NCBI GenBank assembly: GCA_964367355.1
Contig: CAYIWY010000002.1
Location: forward strand, 71,296-135,295
Reading direction: 5' to 3'
Source: an uncultured Gammaproteobacteria bacterium
GTDB lineage: Bacteria; Patescibacteriota; Microgenomatia; Woykebacterales; RBG-16-39-9b
DNA length: 64,000 nt
The number at the start of each line of letters is the position of its first letter. Within the stretch, counting starts at the first letter, position 1. The position numbers and the translations under genes were made by a program. The notes beneath the pieces were generated by a model. The model worked only from the letters and a program-made list of their open reading frames with translations. It ran no database searches and was not told where the DNA came from. Of the stretch, positions 4,428 through 47,717 are shown one piece after another.

Positions 4428-4538
4428 GTGTAGTTTAACTAATATAAGCGTACCAAATATACTCAAACCGTGTCAATAAGGTATAAGCACTCGACCAGGT
4501 CTCGCGCTTGTAACTTAAGCAAGTTATAATTTCTGATT

Positions 4539-5300
4539 ATGACAATAAAAGAAATATTAAAACAATCTAAAATTAAAGGAGTTGAAACAGAAATTTTACT
4601 TTCAGCTGTTCTGAAAAAAGATCGAAGTTTTATTAACGCTTTTCCGGAAACTATTTTATCTAAAGTCCAGGAAAATAGGGTTAATGATTTTATTGACCGC
4701 AGAACGAAAAACGAACCAATACCCTACATTCTTGGTTTTAAGGAATTTTATGGCCTGAAATTTCTGGTTAACCAAGACGTACTTATCCCCCGTCCGGAAA
4801 CAGAAAAATTAGTTGAACAAATTTTAAACCACACCTCTAAAGAACGACATCAAAATTTAACCGTTGCCGATGTCGGAACCGGAAGTGGGTGTATCGCCAT
4901 CACACTAGCAATAAAAAATCCAAAGCTACATATAATTGCAACCGATACCAGTTCGCAAGCACTAGCAGTTGCGATTAAAAATGCTAAATTACACCAGGTT
5001 GAAAATCGAATAAAATTTATAGAGAGCAATCTTTTGGAAAAAGTTAACGAAAAAATGGATGTTGTTGCTACAAACCTTCCCTACATCCCAACTTCGAACT
5101 GGGAAAGATTGCCAGCCGAAATTAAGTATTTCGAACCAAGATTAGCTTTAGATTCAGGAAAAAGCGCATATATCCTTTATCATTTACTTTTTGAAGAAGC
5201 AGCAAAAAAATTAAATCCAGGGGGAGTTATTTTTTATGAAATTGACGGATCGATCAATCAAGTTTCGGCGGTCGATCTAGCGGAAACTCTTCCGGAATAA
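4539..5300 (+). CDS. prmC: Release factor glutamine N5-methyltransferase PrmC/HemK
   Basis: IPYILGFKEFYGLKFLVNQDVLIPRPETE, SAM motif VADVGTGSGCIAI, substrate motif NLPY (NPPY variant). Confidence 0.9.
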   Translation: MTIKEILKQSKIKGVETEILLSAVLKKDRSFINAFPETILSKVQENRVNDFIDRRTKNEPIPYILGFKEFYGLKFLVNQDVLIPRPETEKLVEQILNHTSKERHQNLTVADVGTGSGCIAITLAIKNPKLHIIATDTSSQALAVAIKNAKLHQVENRIKFIESNLLEKVNEKMDVVATNLPYIPTSNWERLPAEIKYFEPRLALDSGKSAYILYHLLFEEAAKKLNPGGVIFYEIDGSINQVSAVDLAETLPE

Positions 5301-44404: not shown

Positions 44405-44436
44405 CCATTGGGTATGAAGGTCGGAAAAAGGAGGTT

Positions 44437-44652
44437 TTGATGACCGGGCCCAAAGCTAGAAGCGTAACAGAAGTTGGAAGAGGCGACTACATCAAAGTTG
44501 GTGATCAGTGGAAGAAAATTGTTTCCAACTCCGCCGCTGGTGCACAAAGCACACCAAGGAACTGGGTCGTTCGGACAGAGGGTGGTGGCGAGTACAGCAT
44601 GTGGAGTATTAACGCTTACGCAAAGGCAGACGATTTGAATCCTAAGCCTTAG
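44437..44652 (+). CDS. Hypothetical small protein (71 aa, GC-richer)
   Basis: SD AAAAGGAGGttttgATG. Own intrinsic terminator at 44669..44708. Confidence 0.5.
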   Translation: MMTGPKARSVTEVGRGDYIKVGDQWKKIVSNSAAGAQSTPRNWVVRTEGGGEYSMWSINAYAKADDLNPKP

Positions 44653-44668
44653 AGCTAAACCGGCCAAT

Positions 44669-44708
44669 GAGCGAGGTATGACATAATTGTCGCCTCGCTT
44701 TTCTTTTT
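44669..44708 (+). terminator. Rho-independent terminator
   Basis: agcgagg-N16-cctcgct + ttttctttttcc. Confidence 0.6.
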
Positions 44709-44758
44709 CCAAATTTGGCTATAGGGTGTATAATTTATTTGAGTGAAAGGAGATAACG

Positions 44759-45028
44759 GTGATCAGAGTGATCTTCGTAACCTTAATGGTAAAAGGACTA
44801 GTACTAGGTGTTTTGTGGGGAGCTTTCGGCCTAGGACAAATCCTGGAACCAGGTTTCCTCGGTAGCGCGGGTAACCCCATAGGAGACAGGCTTCTCGGTA
44901 TATTAGACCTTTTCGTAGGAGCAATATTAGCTGTAATGTGCTTCCTGTGTCTATTTGTATTGGATGGTGGGGCTTGGTATAAGAAAAACTGGCACCAATA
45001 TCAAAAGGAAGGAGATCCACATGTCTGA
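44759..45028 (+). CDS. Small membrane protein (89 aa, 2-3 TM)
   Basis: SD GAAAGGAG + GTG start. Stop overlaps the next gene's ATG (translational coupling). Confidence 0.45.
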   Translation: MIRVIFVTLMVKGLVLGVLWGAFGLGQILEPGFLGSAGNPIGDRLLGILDLFVGAILAVMCFLCLFVLDGGAWYKKNWHQYQKEGDPHV

Positions 45029-45380
45029 CGATCGAAAGTTCTTTGTTTTCATTGGGGGTAGAGACTACCATCCAGATAGTCGTCATTTCAGTCCCGTCCT
45101 AGGACAACCCTACATCGTCGTAACACTCCAGGCTACCTCCAAAGGGTGGTACGCAGAAGGAGAGGTGCGGTCCGACGTTCCGAATACTGAGATTCGTCCT
45201 CACGTAATATCGTCATCGACAACTCATTTGGAAGATGATCTCAGAGGGTTTCTTGGCAACAAGGCAAGGGCAGAAGATATCGGACTCATGACTAGAGCGG
45301 TCTACTCAGTGCTGGTTAACCTCGTTATCGATTCTGCCAAGAAAACGCAAGACCCAGAAGTTACTGCAGCAGCCCATTAA
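45020..45380 (+). CDS. Hypothetical protein (119 aa)
   Basis: MSDDRKFFVFIGGRDYHPDS... with SD AAGGAAGGAGatccacATG. Followed by the terminator at 45390..45425. Confidence 0.5.
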
Positions 45381-45389
45381 GCAGCTCAA

Positions 45390-45425
45390 AAGCGAGGATT
45401 AAAACCCCTCGCTTTACTTTTTTTA
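45390..45425 (+). terminator. Rho-independent terminator (possibly bidirectional with the DUF1003 gene)
   Basis: agcgagg-attaaaacc-cctcgct + ttacttttttta. Confidence 0.6.
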
Positions 45426-45845
45426 TTTGGAAACTTTTGGAGGTTCTTGACCTGGGAAGTTAGATTCAATTTTTTCAATCAGACGGCGAACTTCAGATAA
45501 ATCTTCGGACAAATCGGTAAATTCTTCTTTGATGTCCTCAATGTCTTCTTCAATTTCTTCTTGCTCGGCCTCATCTTCTTTATCTCTTTGTTCAGCAATT
45601 TCTGCTTGGCGGTTTTGGTTAACCATAATGAAAGTTGCCAGAAAAATTGCTTCGAGTGAAACGATCATTGTGAGAAGACCAAAAGGAAAGGAATCCCCGA
45701 TTTTGCGCGCAAACAGCACCCACAAGACAAACCAAATAATGTGTATGTAAACAAAGGCCATACTCCCAGCAAAACGGGTTATTTTATCAGCGATTTTTGT
45801 TTCACTTTCATGAAATTTTTTATTTTTGAATCCTAGAAAAAACAT
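45423..45845 (-). CDS. DUF1003-family membrane protein
   Basis: KIADKITRFAGSMAFVYIHIIWFVLWVL...FPFGLLTMIVSLEAIFLATFIMVNQNRQ followed by an acidic coiled-coil tail. Confidence 0.65.
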   Translation of the reverse strand: MFFLGFKNKKFHESETKIADKITRFAGSMAFVYIHIIWFVLWVLFARKIGDSFPFGLLTMIVSLEAIFLATFIMVNQNRQAEIAEQRDKEDEAEQEEIEEDIEDIKEEFTDLSEDLSEVRRLIEKIESNFPGQEPPKVSK

Positions 45846-46716
45846 CGATCAAAGAGCGTTATTAAACAGTGTAAACATAATTCAAATTGGTTGGTAGTTA
45901 ATAAGTTAGGGGTTGGTAGCAGTGGCTTTATCGTCGTCTCTGAAGCTAATTTTACTAAATTTGAGATTAAATTGCAACTAGTTTCAAGAGGAAGGCGGGG
46001 GTAGAGTGCTTTGCTGTAAACGGCGGGGTACAGCAAATCATTTTCTACCCCCATTTTGTATCACCGACAAAGTTCGCCTCCGTAATCGTGTCGTGTGCGG
46101 GGACCCTTACCTCGATCACAATAAACTTACTTGTCGGTAGACACCAAAGGTTGTTTTGGGGAGTGGTCAGAAGATTTTTAGTCCTGGCGGGGTAGGTTTT
46201 CTTAAAGGTGCTGGAGGCAACCTTCTTTGCATCCCCTGCTAGCCACTCCCCAATTCTGATTCTCTATTGCAACTCTCCTCTCTTAGAGCTAGCGTGAATC
46301 GTGTTTTCACTTTTCACTAGCTTGCTAGCTTAAAAGTACTCTTATGTCAATAAAAAATCAAGAAGAAAATATTTTAAAAAGAAGCGGGGCATGCAAGTGA
46401 GAGTTTCACAAACATGCCCCAAAGCTAGACTCATACCTCCTTCCCTTCTACCGTAACGTATTCAAAGTTGGGACTGACTGGTTTTTGTATTTCCCCCGCC
46501 AAAGTTCGATACGCACCCCGGGTTTCCACCAAAGAGCTGAAACCATCTCGCCCAACAACCGTCTCGAATACGCCAATACCTACTCGGCTAGTCGGTGGCA
46601 GCAGATATACATATCTATATACTCTTTTTTAATTGAAGTTTCAAGCAAACAAGGAAGGGGCTTACAATGTACACCTCCGAGGTGTACATGTACTTTTGTG
46701 AATTAAGAAGGTTTTT

Positions 46717-47160
46717 TTAGGATAATTTTTGTTTAACTAGGTCGCTAACCAGACCCATATCGGCTTTGCCTTTAAGTTTTGCTGAAAGCATGCCCATAAG
46801 TCGACCCATTTCTGTTATCGAAGAAGCACCGCTCGAAGCAATAACCAGAGTTACTTCTTTTTCGATTTCTTCTCTGCTCATTTGTTCTGGGAGATAAGAT
46901 TGCAAAATTGAGAGTTCCTTTTTTTCTTTGGCGGCCATTTCAGTTCGGTTGCCTTTTTCAAACGCTTCGATACTCTCGCGGTGGCGCTTCACTTGTCTTT
47001 CAAGCAAGATAGCTATATCTTCGTCCTCAAGTTCCCTTTGTTTTTCGATTTTTAAGTTTTTCATATCAGCCATCAGAAATCTGATCGTTGAGACTCGCAG
47101 CTCGTCACGGGCCATCATTGCTTCTTTTAAATCATTAGTTAATTTTTCATTCAAACTCAT
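46717..47160 (-). CDS. yqeY: GatB/YqeY-domain protein
   Basis: MSLNEKLTNDLKEAMMARDELRVSTIRFLMADMKNLKIEKQRELEDEDIAILLERQVKRHRESIEAFEKGNR. Confidence 0.85.
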   Translation of the reverse strand: MSLNEKLTNDLKEAMMARDELRVSTIRFLMADMKNLKIEKQRELEDEDIAILLERQVKRHRESIEAFEKGNRTEMAAKEKKELSILQSYLPEQMSREEIEKEVTLVIASSGASSITEMGRLMGMLSAKLKGKADMGLVSDLVKQKLS

Positions 47161-47717
47161 AAAACTCCTTTTAATTTTAAAAACTCTGCAATTTCTTGAT
47201 TTACTTCTGATTTTACCTTATCTGTCGAAATAACAATATTAGTAAGTTCTAAACACCCTTTTGTGTTCTGTCCCCATTCTGGCTCACCGTAACCCGCATC
47301 CCGTTTCTCCCCAACTTGAAACTCTTCCCAAGTTTTTGGATCGCGGGAAAGTTTGTTAACTCTTTGAAACCTAACTTCAACTGGCGCGTTTAAACCAATC
47401 AAATAAAAATTATCGCGTTTTTTAAACGGGTAAATTTCACCGGGATTGCGACAGCCTTCAATGACAATTTTTGACTCTTTTGGAAGTTTTGCAATTGTTT
47501 TTAAAATTCTCCGGCTGATGAAATCAACTTTTTTTGCACGCCACTCGTTGCCAATATCCTGGTAATTTTTGCGGCTAAATTCAAGATTTCTCTTTTTTAT
47601 TTCTTTTTCGATTTCCTCTGAAAAACGCAAATGGACAAAACCTTTTTTTACTAAAAACGCGGACGTTGTACTTTTTCCAGAACCTATAGGTCCAACTATT
47701 CCGACAACTATCTGCAT
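47157..47717 (-). CDS. P-loop NTPase (dephospho-CoA kinase / nucleoside kinase-like)
   Basis: Walker A IVGPIGSGKST at the N-terminus. 186 aa. 4-nt overlap with yqeY. Confidence 0.5.
   Translation of the reverse strand: MQIVVGIVGPIGSGKSTTSAFLVKKGFVHLRFSEEIEKEIKKRNLEFSRKNYQDIGNEWRAKKVDFISRRILKTIAKLPKESKIVIEGCRNPGEIYPFKKRDNFYLIGLNAPVEVRFQRVNKLSRDPKTWEEFQVGEKRDAGYGEPEWGQNTKGCLELTNIVISTDKVKSEVNQEIAEFLKLKGVL

Follow-up and report, generated by a model that had tools for sequence, protein, structure and literature searches.

The stretch analysed here (the window) is 64 kb of the host contig CAYIWY010000002.1, and all coordinates below are in window numbering. Its sequence matches a contig in ERZ1292616 (Hainich groundwater, 0.1-µm filter fraction), and a sequence search found the nearest named relatives of its YqeY protein in Candidatus Woykebacteria and other Patescibacteria. 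On the minus strand the gene order is recR, AAA_18 kinase, yqeY, a gene-free gap and a DUF1003 gene; three plus-strand open reading frames (ORFs) and then cysS follow. The gap between yqeY and DUF1003 is the subject of this study. The original prediction, made from the letters alone, described it as hairpin-dense and proposed one or two structured RNA genes on opposite strands, or a very long 3' untranslated region (UTR) of the recR-kinase-yqeY operon. Our analysis suggests that it most likely holds two previously undescribed structured small RNAs (sRNAs), RNA A and RNA B. They would be non-coding RNA genes, independent of each other and placed one after the other on the minus strand, each with its own predicted promoter and hairpin terminator, and would function as lineage-specific trans-acting sRNAs by base pairing. 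We give this reading a probability of about 0.6. The predicted layout of the locus, in minus-strand order, is as follows.

46717-47160, minus strand: yqeY
45846-46716: gene-free gap of 871 bp between yqeY and DUF1003
46667..46689, minus strand: perfect 11-nt inverted repeat directly after the yqeY stop, a hairpin that is the probable terminator of the yqeY operon
46616..46644, minus strand: P_A, promoter-like site TTGAAA-17 nt-TATATA upstream of RNA A
46376..46610, minus strand: RNA A, about 235 nt, with the 5' end placed from the -10 box and the 3' end at the U-tract
46376..46420, minus strand: T_A, predicted intrinsic terminator of RNA A, GGGGCAUG...CAUGCCCC followed by GCUUCUUUUU
46333..46361, minus strand: P_B, promoter-like site TTGATT-17 nt-TACTTT in the AU-rich spacer after T_A
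45986..46326, minus strand: RNA B, about 340 nt, with the 5' end placed from the -10 box
45949..45977, minus strand: promoter-like site of DUF1003, TTGCAA-17 nt-TAAAAT
45846..45942, minus strand: probable 5' UTR of DUF1003, outside the RNAs, from the promoter-like site to the ATG
45423-45845, minus strand: DUF1003 gene, with its ATG at 45845

The relatives used for comparison are metagenomic contigs, designated by L-numbers, from a protein search whose YqeY homologs form a graded series; the orthologous gaps downstream of yqeY were compared, and those of eight such contigs point to the two minus-strand units. Their YqeY identity to the window is 94% (L084), 84% (L086), 80% (L241 and L087), 73% (L090 and L089), 71% (L092), 70% (L094 and L175) and 69% (L176 and L177). 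The gap measures 824 nt in L084, 808 in L086, 906 in L241, 756 in L087, 836 in L094, 615 in both L092 and L176, and 2079 in L177. It is shorter in L089 (277 nt) and in L175 (about 400 nt, after a GIY-YIG gene), and the L090 contig stops 395 nt past yqeY. In L087 the gap is retained though DUF1003 is absent, and RNA B lies directly upstream of cysS. The contigs L001-L003, with identical YqeY, have an identical gap too, so they offer no variation to use. No similarity to the gap was found in 80 GTDB loci reached through YqeY (species representatives, all at ≤52% identity), and a scan of JGI metagenomes, with YqeY relatives all at ≤61%, added the 822-nt gap of L096, in which nothing was alignable. 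Relatives with less than about 60% YqeY identity have essentially no such gap, L096 (53%) excepted. The RNA A/B family is narrow, being found in relatives with YqeY identity of at least about 65-70%, and it is fast-evolving.

Genomes of the Patescibacteria (Candidate Phyla Radiation, CPR) are very small and tightly packed. The gap is probably functional, because some 870 non-coding bp have been kept across species-to-family-level relatives in such genomes. Conserved promoter-like sites, terminators, covarying helices and complementary loop motifs strengthen this case.

The gap is gene-free, as originally described: its ORFs are at most 73 aa long, none of the five tested matched a Pfam family, and no frame is kept in the relatives. 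A conserved ORF, named in the original prediction as one of two observations that would refute it, was looked for and none emerged. Translated stop-to-stop comparison gave matches in every one of the six frames for L086 and L087, as nucleotide identity predicts, and no matches in L094, L176, L177 or L092; indels in the gap are often not multiples of three. Folding of the gap against dinucleotide shuffles gave z = -3.4 on the plus strand and z = -4.6 on the minus strand. The description of the gap as GC-rich did not hold, its GC content being 42.9% against 40.5% for the window, with GC-richness confined to stems.

All four stem-loops listed in the original prediction are present, at coordinates off by 1-14 nt. 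The hairpin GGGGGTAGAG/TTCTACCCCC, with its inner stem TTTGCTGTA/TACAGCAAA, lies at 45997-46052 instead of 45983-46053; the pair GGGGAGTGG/CCACTCCCC is at 46158 and 46243 (given as 46157 and 46241), and GGGGCATG-N19-CATGCCCC is at 46386-46420 (given as 46383-46425). The last hairpin reads ATGTACACCTC-C-GAGGTGTACAT and occupies 46667-46689, which replaces both the earlier position (46655-46678) and the 9-3-9 geometry. Its arms are one base apart, so the working stem would have about 8 bp and a 3-nt loop. A fifth, unlisted long-range stem pairs ACCGACAAAGT at 46063 with ACTTGTCGGT at 46129.

Promoter-like sites and terminators divide the region. A scan for TTGNNN-17-TANNN(A/T) found five sites in the gap against 0.6 in shuffles, and three sites stand at orthologous positions in up to eight genomes with varying spacer sequences. 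In the P_A block, CTTGTTTGCTTGAA...TATATA, the elements TTGAAw and TATAnA and their 17-nt spacing are invariant in all seven genomes with RNA A, and the spacer varies. The T_A hairpin and its U-run are likewise kept in 7/7 genomes, with 6-7 consecutive U in L087, L090 and L094. The AU-rich spacer after T_A reads TTGAT(T/C)-17-TAnnTT in the alignments, and P_B in the wider form TTG(A/C)(A/T)N-17-TAnnTT has orthologous counterparts in L086, L241, L087, L090, L094, L092 and L176; L084 has TTGTTT. The promoter-like site of DUF1003, kept in L084, L086, L241, L094, L176, L177 and L092, leaves an untranslated leader of about 100 nt before that gene. The hairpin after yqeY stands at the same position in L086, L090 and L241, where 5-6 T follow on the yqeY strand, and its U-run is degenerate in the window. 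The terminal hairpin of RNA B (P4, below) is followed by U-runs on the yqeY strand in L241, L087, L094, L092 and L176.

These elements predict that RNA A, RNA B and DUF1003 are three transcription units, one after another, whose transcription and exact ends we infer from the sequence; a sigma-70-type promoter probably drives each RNA. At the sequence level the two RNAs have what is expected of sRNA genes, namely their own promoter-like site, a predicted Rho-independent terminator and no conserved ORF. A riboswitch or T-box leader would sit in the 5' UTR of the gene it regulates, with no promoter between the two, but here RNA A is set apart from RNA B, and RNA B from DUF1003, by conserved promoter-like sites. 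Of the original proposal, the part about one or two structured RNA genes holds: there are two units, the folds of both are supported by covariation, and their promoter-like sites and terminators are conserved. Two details of the original proposal had to be given up. The terminators are not convergent, both terminal hairpins belonging to minus-strand units arranged head to tail. Nor are the units on opposite strands: both run in the direction of yqeY and DUF1003, judging by fold energy and pairing for RNA A and by the U-runs for RNA B.

RNA A has homologs in L084, L086, L241, L087, L090 and L094. Its fold was computed with RNAalifold from the seven sequences, which come from about four lineages, and covariation was counted on their plain MAFFT alignment. 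The consensus fold opens with the 5' hairpin H1; the long closing stem H2 comes next, then a weak hairpin that covers a purine tract, and finally the terminator. Its elements before T_A are:

46576..46608, minus strand: H1, 5' hairpin, loop with conserved UGCCACC
46454..46575, minus strand: H2, long-range stem UGGCGUAUUCGAG/CUUUGAAUACGUUA plus an inner extension, enclosing a variable core
46487..46512, minus strand: H3, hairpin inside H2 that presents the G-loop, GGCGGGG at 46494-46500
46435..46448, minus strand: purine-rich, Shine-Dalgarno-like tract GAAGGGAAGGAGGU, in which AAGGAGG is kept in 6/7 genomes

Pairing is possible in 88.9% of the alignment cells of this fold (50 cells being G-U), and 13 of 39 pairs are changed on both sides. 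This compares with 5.3±1.7 in shuffles that take no account of relatedness among the sequences (0/500 reach 13) and with only 2-5 doubly changed pairs when partners are slid. H1 pairs in 100% of cells and has compensatory changes in three of its five outer pairs; in H2 (alignment helices 3 and 4) eight pairs are changed on both sides. The opposite strand would pair only 73.1% of cells, and the consensus fold energy is -23.1 kcal/mol on the minus strand against -9.4 on the plus strand. The many G-U pairs of H2 fit the minus strand only.

H3 is present in every genome. Its stem differs (GUAUC/GAUAC; GUUAUU/AAUAAC in L086; GGUUUG/CAAACC in L094; read from the sequences and folds) and its loop UGGCGGG(G) is kept. 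A second copy of the G-loop occurs in L086, L087 and L094, and a second GGCGGGG in L090 is not resolved into a hairpin. The purine tract, ending in AAGGAGGU, lies upstream of T_A; the nearest start codon is 1 nt away, and there is no start at the 5-7 nt spacing of neighbouring genes. A covariance model of RNA A, run over 33 sources, returned the training sequences only, plus one 12-bit match at 32391-32506 of the window (minus strand; rough E-value 0.013), which lies inside a 746-aa ORF and was taken as noise.

RNA B is recognizable by sequence in L084, L086, L241 and L087, and these with the window make an alignment of five sequences from about three lineages. In L094, L092 and L176 it cannot be aligned at the nucleotide level, but its elements come in the same order, beginning with a 5' hairpin and an AAGGAG-like tract, continuing with three hairpin domains whose total length is similar, and ending in a terminator. 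Its elements are:

46288..46321, minus strand: 5' hairpin GCUAGU...GUGAA-loop-UUCAC...GCUAGC (alignment helices 1-2)
46275..46282, minus strand: Shine-Dalgarno-like purine tract GAGAGGAG, with the 3' tail as predicted partner
46158..46251, minus strand: domain P2, closing stem GGGGAGUGG/CCACUCCCC, hypervariable interior with CCCCGCC at 46186-46192
46063..46138, minus strand: domain P3, closing stem ACCGACAAGU/ACUUUGUCGGU, inner hairpin with the C-loop CCCCGC at 46097-46102
45997..46052, minus strand: domain P4, 3' terminal hairpin GGGGGUAGA...UCUACCCCC, C-loop CCCCGCC at 46022-46028
45986..45996, minus strand: pyrimidine-rich 3' tail GCCUUCCUCUU, in the place of the relatives' U-tract

Pairing is possible in 90.3% of cells, and 15 of 74 pairs are changed on both sides, against 9.9±2.0 in shuffles (4/500) and 4-7 with slid partners. 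These counts are conservative because MAFFT (localpair included) puts P3 and P4 of the window group and of L241/L087 out of register; some helices of RNA B were read by eye. Covariation analysis of relatives, which the original prediction had proposed as a check, thus gave compensatory changes in favour of both folds. Fold energy barely discriminates the strands of RNA B (-62.5 against -57.7), with 90.3% of cells paired against 81.5%, and the minus-strand call rests mainly on the promoter-like site and on the U-runs of relatives.

The contribution of individual helices differs. The 5' hairpin gives no covariation support because its inner stem is invariant. The closing stem of P2 (helix 4) is paired in 98.5% of cells and has three compensatory pairs, and one G-C to A-U swap in P2 can be read directly from the sequences. 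Its 3' strand UCUGACYACUCCC is kept out to L092 and L176, around an interior of about 25 to 100 nt. Sequence conservation reaches to L092, and partly to L176, in both closing stems, that of P2 (GGGGAGURG/CYACUCCCC) and that of P3 (CCGRCA/UGUCGG). The inner stem of P3 varies (GAUCG/CGAUU; GUCG/CGAC in L241 and L087; GGGCCA/UGGCCC in L094), while the loop stays (A/U)CCCCGC and is unpaired with a probability of 0.67-0.99. In L241 and L087, P4 shows compensatory changes from G-C to A-U and from U-A to A-U, its outer stem going from GGGGG/CCCCC to GAGGG/CCCUC, and the unpaired probability of its loop is 0.9-1.0. Following P4 there are 7-8 U in L241, L087 and L094, and only CCUUCCUCUU in the window. 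Each RNA has an AAGGAG(G) tract that is either free or weakly paired. In RNA B, four pairs are changed on both sides in the helix between the purine tract and the 3' tail (helix 3), which would close RNA B end to end. We give this helix little weight because a U/C-rich tail pairs with any purine run.

In L092, a 156-aa gene is called right over the RNA B homolog on the opposite strand (4435-4905); it has no Pfam match and is probably a spurious call over a structured RNA. A paralogy between RNA A and RNA B was considered and rejected, the common 13-mer CGAACUUUG(G/U)CGG being at chance level for the tool used.

The loops of the two RNAs carry motifs that are exact reverse complements over 7 nt. 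GGCGGGG occurs at five sites in the 64 kb with both strands counted, about the chance number for the whole window, and four of the five are inside the gap: RNA B has three of them, in the form CCCCGCC, and RNA A has the other, in the form GGCGGGG. Similarly, six of the 13 CCCCGC sites in the window are in the gap, where about 0.17 would be expected for 871 bp. The C-copies in P3 and P4 have a loop unpaired probability of 0.67-1.0 in five genomes and persist while their stems change. CCCCGC is kept in the P3 loop of 6/6 genomes and in the P4 loop of five (CCCCGU in L241; none in L094). The GGCGGGG/CCCCGCC match is preserved in L084, L086, L241, L094 and the window itself; in L087 it is the first G-loop that preserves it. 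The P4 loop of L241, now CCCCGUC, still pairs with GGCGGGG through G-U. In L094, two G-loops and two C-motifs are retained though their surroundings have diverged beyond alignment.

From these features a mode of action can be proposed, most likely base pairing. RNA A would display GGCGGGG from its core in one or two hairpin loops, followed by the purine-rich tract and a strong terminator, and RNA B would display CCCCGC(C) in two or three loops of P2-P4. RNA B may act like the C-rich-loop sRNAs of Hfq-independent Gram-positives. The G-loop of RNA A would bind RNA B loop to loop, which would make RNA A a sponge, an antagonist or a partner. In kind, the RNAs would be lineage-specific trans-encoded sRNAs, possibly an sRNA and its sponge. 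A more ambitious version, which we consider tentative and rather doubtful, makes the two RNAs a conserved, genetically linked module of one clade of Patescibacteria, joined by two or three kissing contacts; they would be a bipartite scaffold, or an sRNA and the antagonist dedicated to it. The gap would then be a fast-evolving 'sRNA island' of one to four units (one in L176 and L092, two in the window, three or more in L177).

Several observations weigh against these proposals. The alignments are small (seven sequences of RNA A and five of RNA B, from about four and three lineages), the covariation shuffles ignore relatedness, and the strongest stems of RNA B are simply conserved in sequence. 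P4 of the window has no U-run, so the 3' end of RNA B is uncertain and read-through into DUF1003 is possible. The match between A and B loops is conserved complementarity and not covariation, because no compensatory double change between the loops was seen. The second G-loop of L087 has decayed to GGCGGGU, and in L177 the A-B match is only 5 bp. L176 and L092 have a B-like unit without A, so B cannot need A everywhere, and L176 has GGGCGGG and CCCCGCCC in one RNA, where pairing in cis is possible. A DNA-level role of the motif is conceivable, for which its orientation would be irrelevant, but this would leave its placement in loops on covarying stems unexplained. Finally, a search of the 64 kb for mRNA targets found no convincing site: none of the GCGGGG sites in it is near a start codon, and duplex scans of 70 translation-initiation regions gave as best matches a coding-region site or the complement of a neighbour's Shine-Dalgarno sequence.

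Full-length A-B duplex folding was no better than shuffles, and such energies are uninformative because everything pairs. Two other pairings were rejected, namely an antiterminator role of GGCGGGG against the CCCCGC of T_A, and pairing of UCUAGC in RNA A with the 5' AAGCUAG of RNA B. For neither pairing do L087, L090, L094 and L241 conserve the partner sequence.

Among other explanations, the one that fares best is a single ornate RNA of about 620 nt running from P_A to P4, with T_A as a structural hairpin and with tertiary contacts between the G- and C-loops inside the molecule. It draws on the complementarity of the loops, on the fixed order of A and B wherever both are present, and on L176, whose unit carries both GGGCGGG and CCCCGCCC and could close the helix in cis; a leaky T_A would make it possible. 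However, T_A is a canonical GC-rich hairpin with a U-run in every genome, and after it comes an AU-rich spacer with a -35/-10 pair at exactly 17 nt and varying spacer sequence. Moreover, L092 and L176 have B without A, each with its own promoter-like site, and L177 has at least three units. We consider a single RNA unlikely.

Cis-acting elements are an improbable alternative to independent sRNA genes. The gap would then be a long 3' UTR of yqeY, or would hold attenuator- or riboswitch-type leaders controlling DUF1003 or cysS through T_A and P4. The units do sit between co-directional genes, each ending in a terminator hairpin, RNA B of L087 is directly upstream of cysS, and the absence of a U-run after P4 in the window makes read-through conceivable. 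Nevertheless, a conserved promoter-like site lies between RNA B and DUF1003, and the relatives have a separate, dedicated DUF1003 leader downstream of it. The downstream gene also differs (DUF1003 in most genomes, cysS in L087), Rfam gave no T-box or riboswitch match, and the core of RNA A is variable in length, unlike a ligand pocket. A long 3' UTR of the recR-kinase-yqeY operon, the other half of the original proposal, is unlikely because a terminator-type hairpin follows yqeY, the units have their own -35/-10 pairs at exactly 17 nt, and they come and go independently.

Small proteins are a very improbable explanation. The best candidate is a 30-codon frame in RNA A from the ATG just after AAGGAGGT, through the terminator. 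An ATG or TTG lies 1 nt after AGGAGGT in the window, L084, L241, L087 and L090, and in the same genomes the insertions before CTAGC are multiples of three. Yet this 1-nt spacing compares with 5-7 nt in neighbouring genes, L086 has no start codon, the frame is shifted by a 1-nt indel, and the peptides, of 13-31 aa with unrelated C-termini, would overrun the terminator. No translated similarity was found in distant relatives, and no Pfam match.

Known RNA families were also searched for. Rfam 15 (4227 models at gathering score, including RNase P, transfer-messenger RNA (tmRNA), signal recognition particle (SRP) RNA, 6S, T-box, riboswitches, OLE, ROOL, GOLLD, HEARO and RsaE) gave no match in the whole window or in 13 related loci. 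The Rfam check proposed in the original prediction thus matched no known family at the gap. At E ≤ 10, the region 45300-47300 gave only noise (best 22 bits against a cut-off of 79), and L177 gave nothing at E ≤ 1. ARAGORN found no tRNA or tmRNA in the window, and neither RNA has a T-arm of GGUUCGA type. RNase P RNA and 6S RNA gave no model match; RNA B is a chain of four hairpin domains, or three or four separate ones in the comparison with 6S, and RNA A has separate 5' and terminator hairpins. There are no CRISPR- or TIGR-type repeat arrays, nor any repeat family other than chance-level 10-18-mers. A search of IMG/VR with a 15-mer of RNA B gave 63 matches, estimated at about chance level, and blastn of phages gave nothing.

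Highly divergent housekeeping RNAs (RNase P RNA, tmRNA, SRP or 6S RNA) missed by standard models are the least plausible explanation: 235 and 340 nt do fit the size ranges of 6S/SRP RNA and RNase P RNA/tmRNA, and CPR RNAs are often atypical, but beyond these null searches the hairpin chains have no P4-type pseudoknot core, tRNA-like domain, SRP domain IV motif or 6S central bubble, and the RNAs are missing at the locus in relatives below about 60% YqeY identity (L096 having an unrelated gap) and evolve too fast.

The preferred reading, two tandem sRNA genes, can be compared with known systems. In Firmicutes, RsaE/RoxS- and LhrC-type sRNAs carry C-rich motifs in hairpin loops, and the LhrC1-4 genes are in tandem. 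RNA A and RNA B resemble them as predicted independent small genes with a promoter-like site and an intrinsic terminator of their own and more than one sRNA gene in tandem, and RNA B has several unpaired C-rich copies in hairpin loops. They differ in having no sequence or covariance-model similarity, in the length of RNA B (three to four times greater), in its motif (CCCCGC(C), not UCCC/CCCC), in the host, a Patescibacteria lineage, and in that no G-rich ribosome-binding-site targets were found in the 64 kb. In Bacillus subtilis, the G-rich sponge RNA RosA titrates the C-rich regions of RoxS. The similarity here is a G-rich RNA alongside a separate RNA with exactly complementary C-rich single-stranded motifs. 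Unlike RosA and RoxS, the A and B genes are adjacent in conserved order, their interaction is a prediction, and some relatives have B without A.

Complementary multiple hairpin loops on both partners, in a kissing geometry, are reminiscent of ColE1 RNA I/RNA II and of CopA/CopT. Those RNAs are encoded on opposite strands and are fully complementary, whereas A and B are co-directional and match over 6-9 nt per loop. As a long, multi-domain structured non-coding region in a compact genome the gap also recalls OLE, ROOL and GOLLD, from which it differs by the lack of a covariance-model match, an internal terminator and promoter-like site, a narrow phyletic range and quick turnover.

If expressed and interacting, RNA A and RNA B would be a concrete example of post-transcriptional regulation in this lineage, where our literature search found nothing on sRNAs in Patescibacteria or on DUF1003-linked riboswitches. 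The two-RNA module, if true, would rank among the first regulatory circuits between RNAs to be defined in these bacteria, which are ultra-small and largely uncultivated. The two alignments could seed new RNA families. Should the RNAs be ordinary lineage-specific sRNAs, they would still be useful for annotation, as the probably spurious call in L092 illustrates. Lineage-specific sRNAs are common in bacteria generally.

Two relatives have unusual stretches at the same place. L177 (3442-5520) has no called gene in its 2079-nt gap, which apparently contains at least three units bounded by promoters and terminators, a middle one carrying GGGCGG motifs and the final one CCCCGC(C) motifs, which points to a variable 'sRNA island'. 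In L096 (2942-3766), the unrelated 822-nt gene-free stretch 3' of yqeY contains a TTGACT-17-TATACT site and an AAAGGAG tract, ends in a GC-rich hairpin with a U-run, and is without the G or C motifs. It may encode a further large non-coding RNA at this position.

On the other side of DUF1003, in the interval to cysS, are the three small plus-strand ORFs (44437-44652, 44759-45028 and 45021-45380), on the strand opposite to their neighbours. None has a Pfam family, yet the annotations of the source contig and of L084 include them as genes. The region 44405-45380 has a local GC content of about 0.50 and positive GC skew.

The DUF1003 gene itself is preceded by CUCUUUGAUCG (45846-45860), without a Shine-Dalgarno-like sequence, and neighbouring genes have clear AAGGAGG sites. 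In several relatives, a conserved structured leader lies between the DUF1003 promoter-like site and the start codon (L241:1510-1591, L177:5208-5293, L176:3910-3989, L175:2470-2567 and L089:4497-4570); a degenerate copy lies near L094:5195-5260, and the leader is absent from the window. It has no Rfam match and reads GGCAUCU...CGCCGCAU-(covarying hairpin)-ACCCGACGU...ACAGGGAAACCAAAGC...AGAUGCC, then a U-run. Eight of its 29 predicted pairs are changed on both sides, and it looks like a riboswitch-type attenuator.

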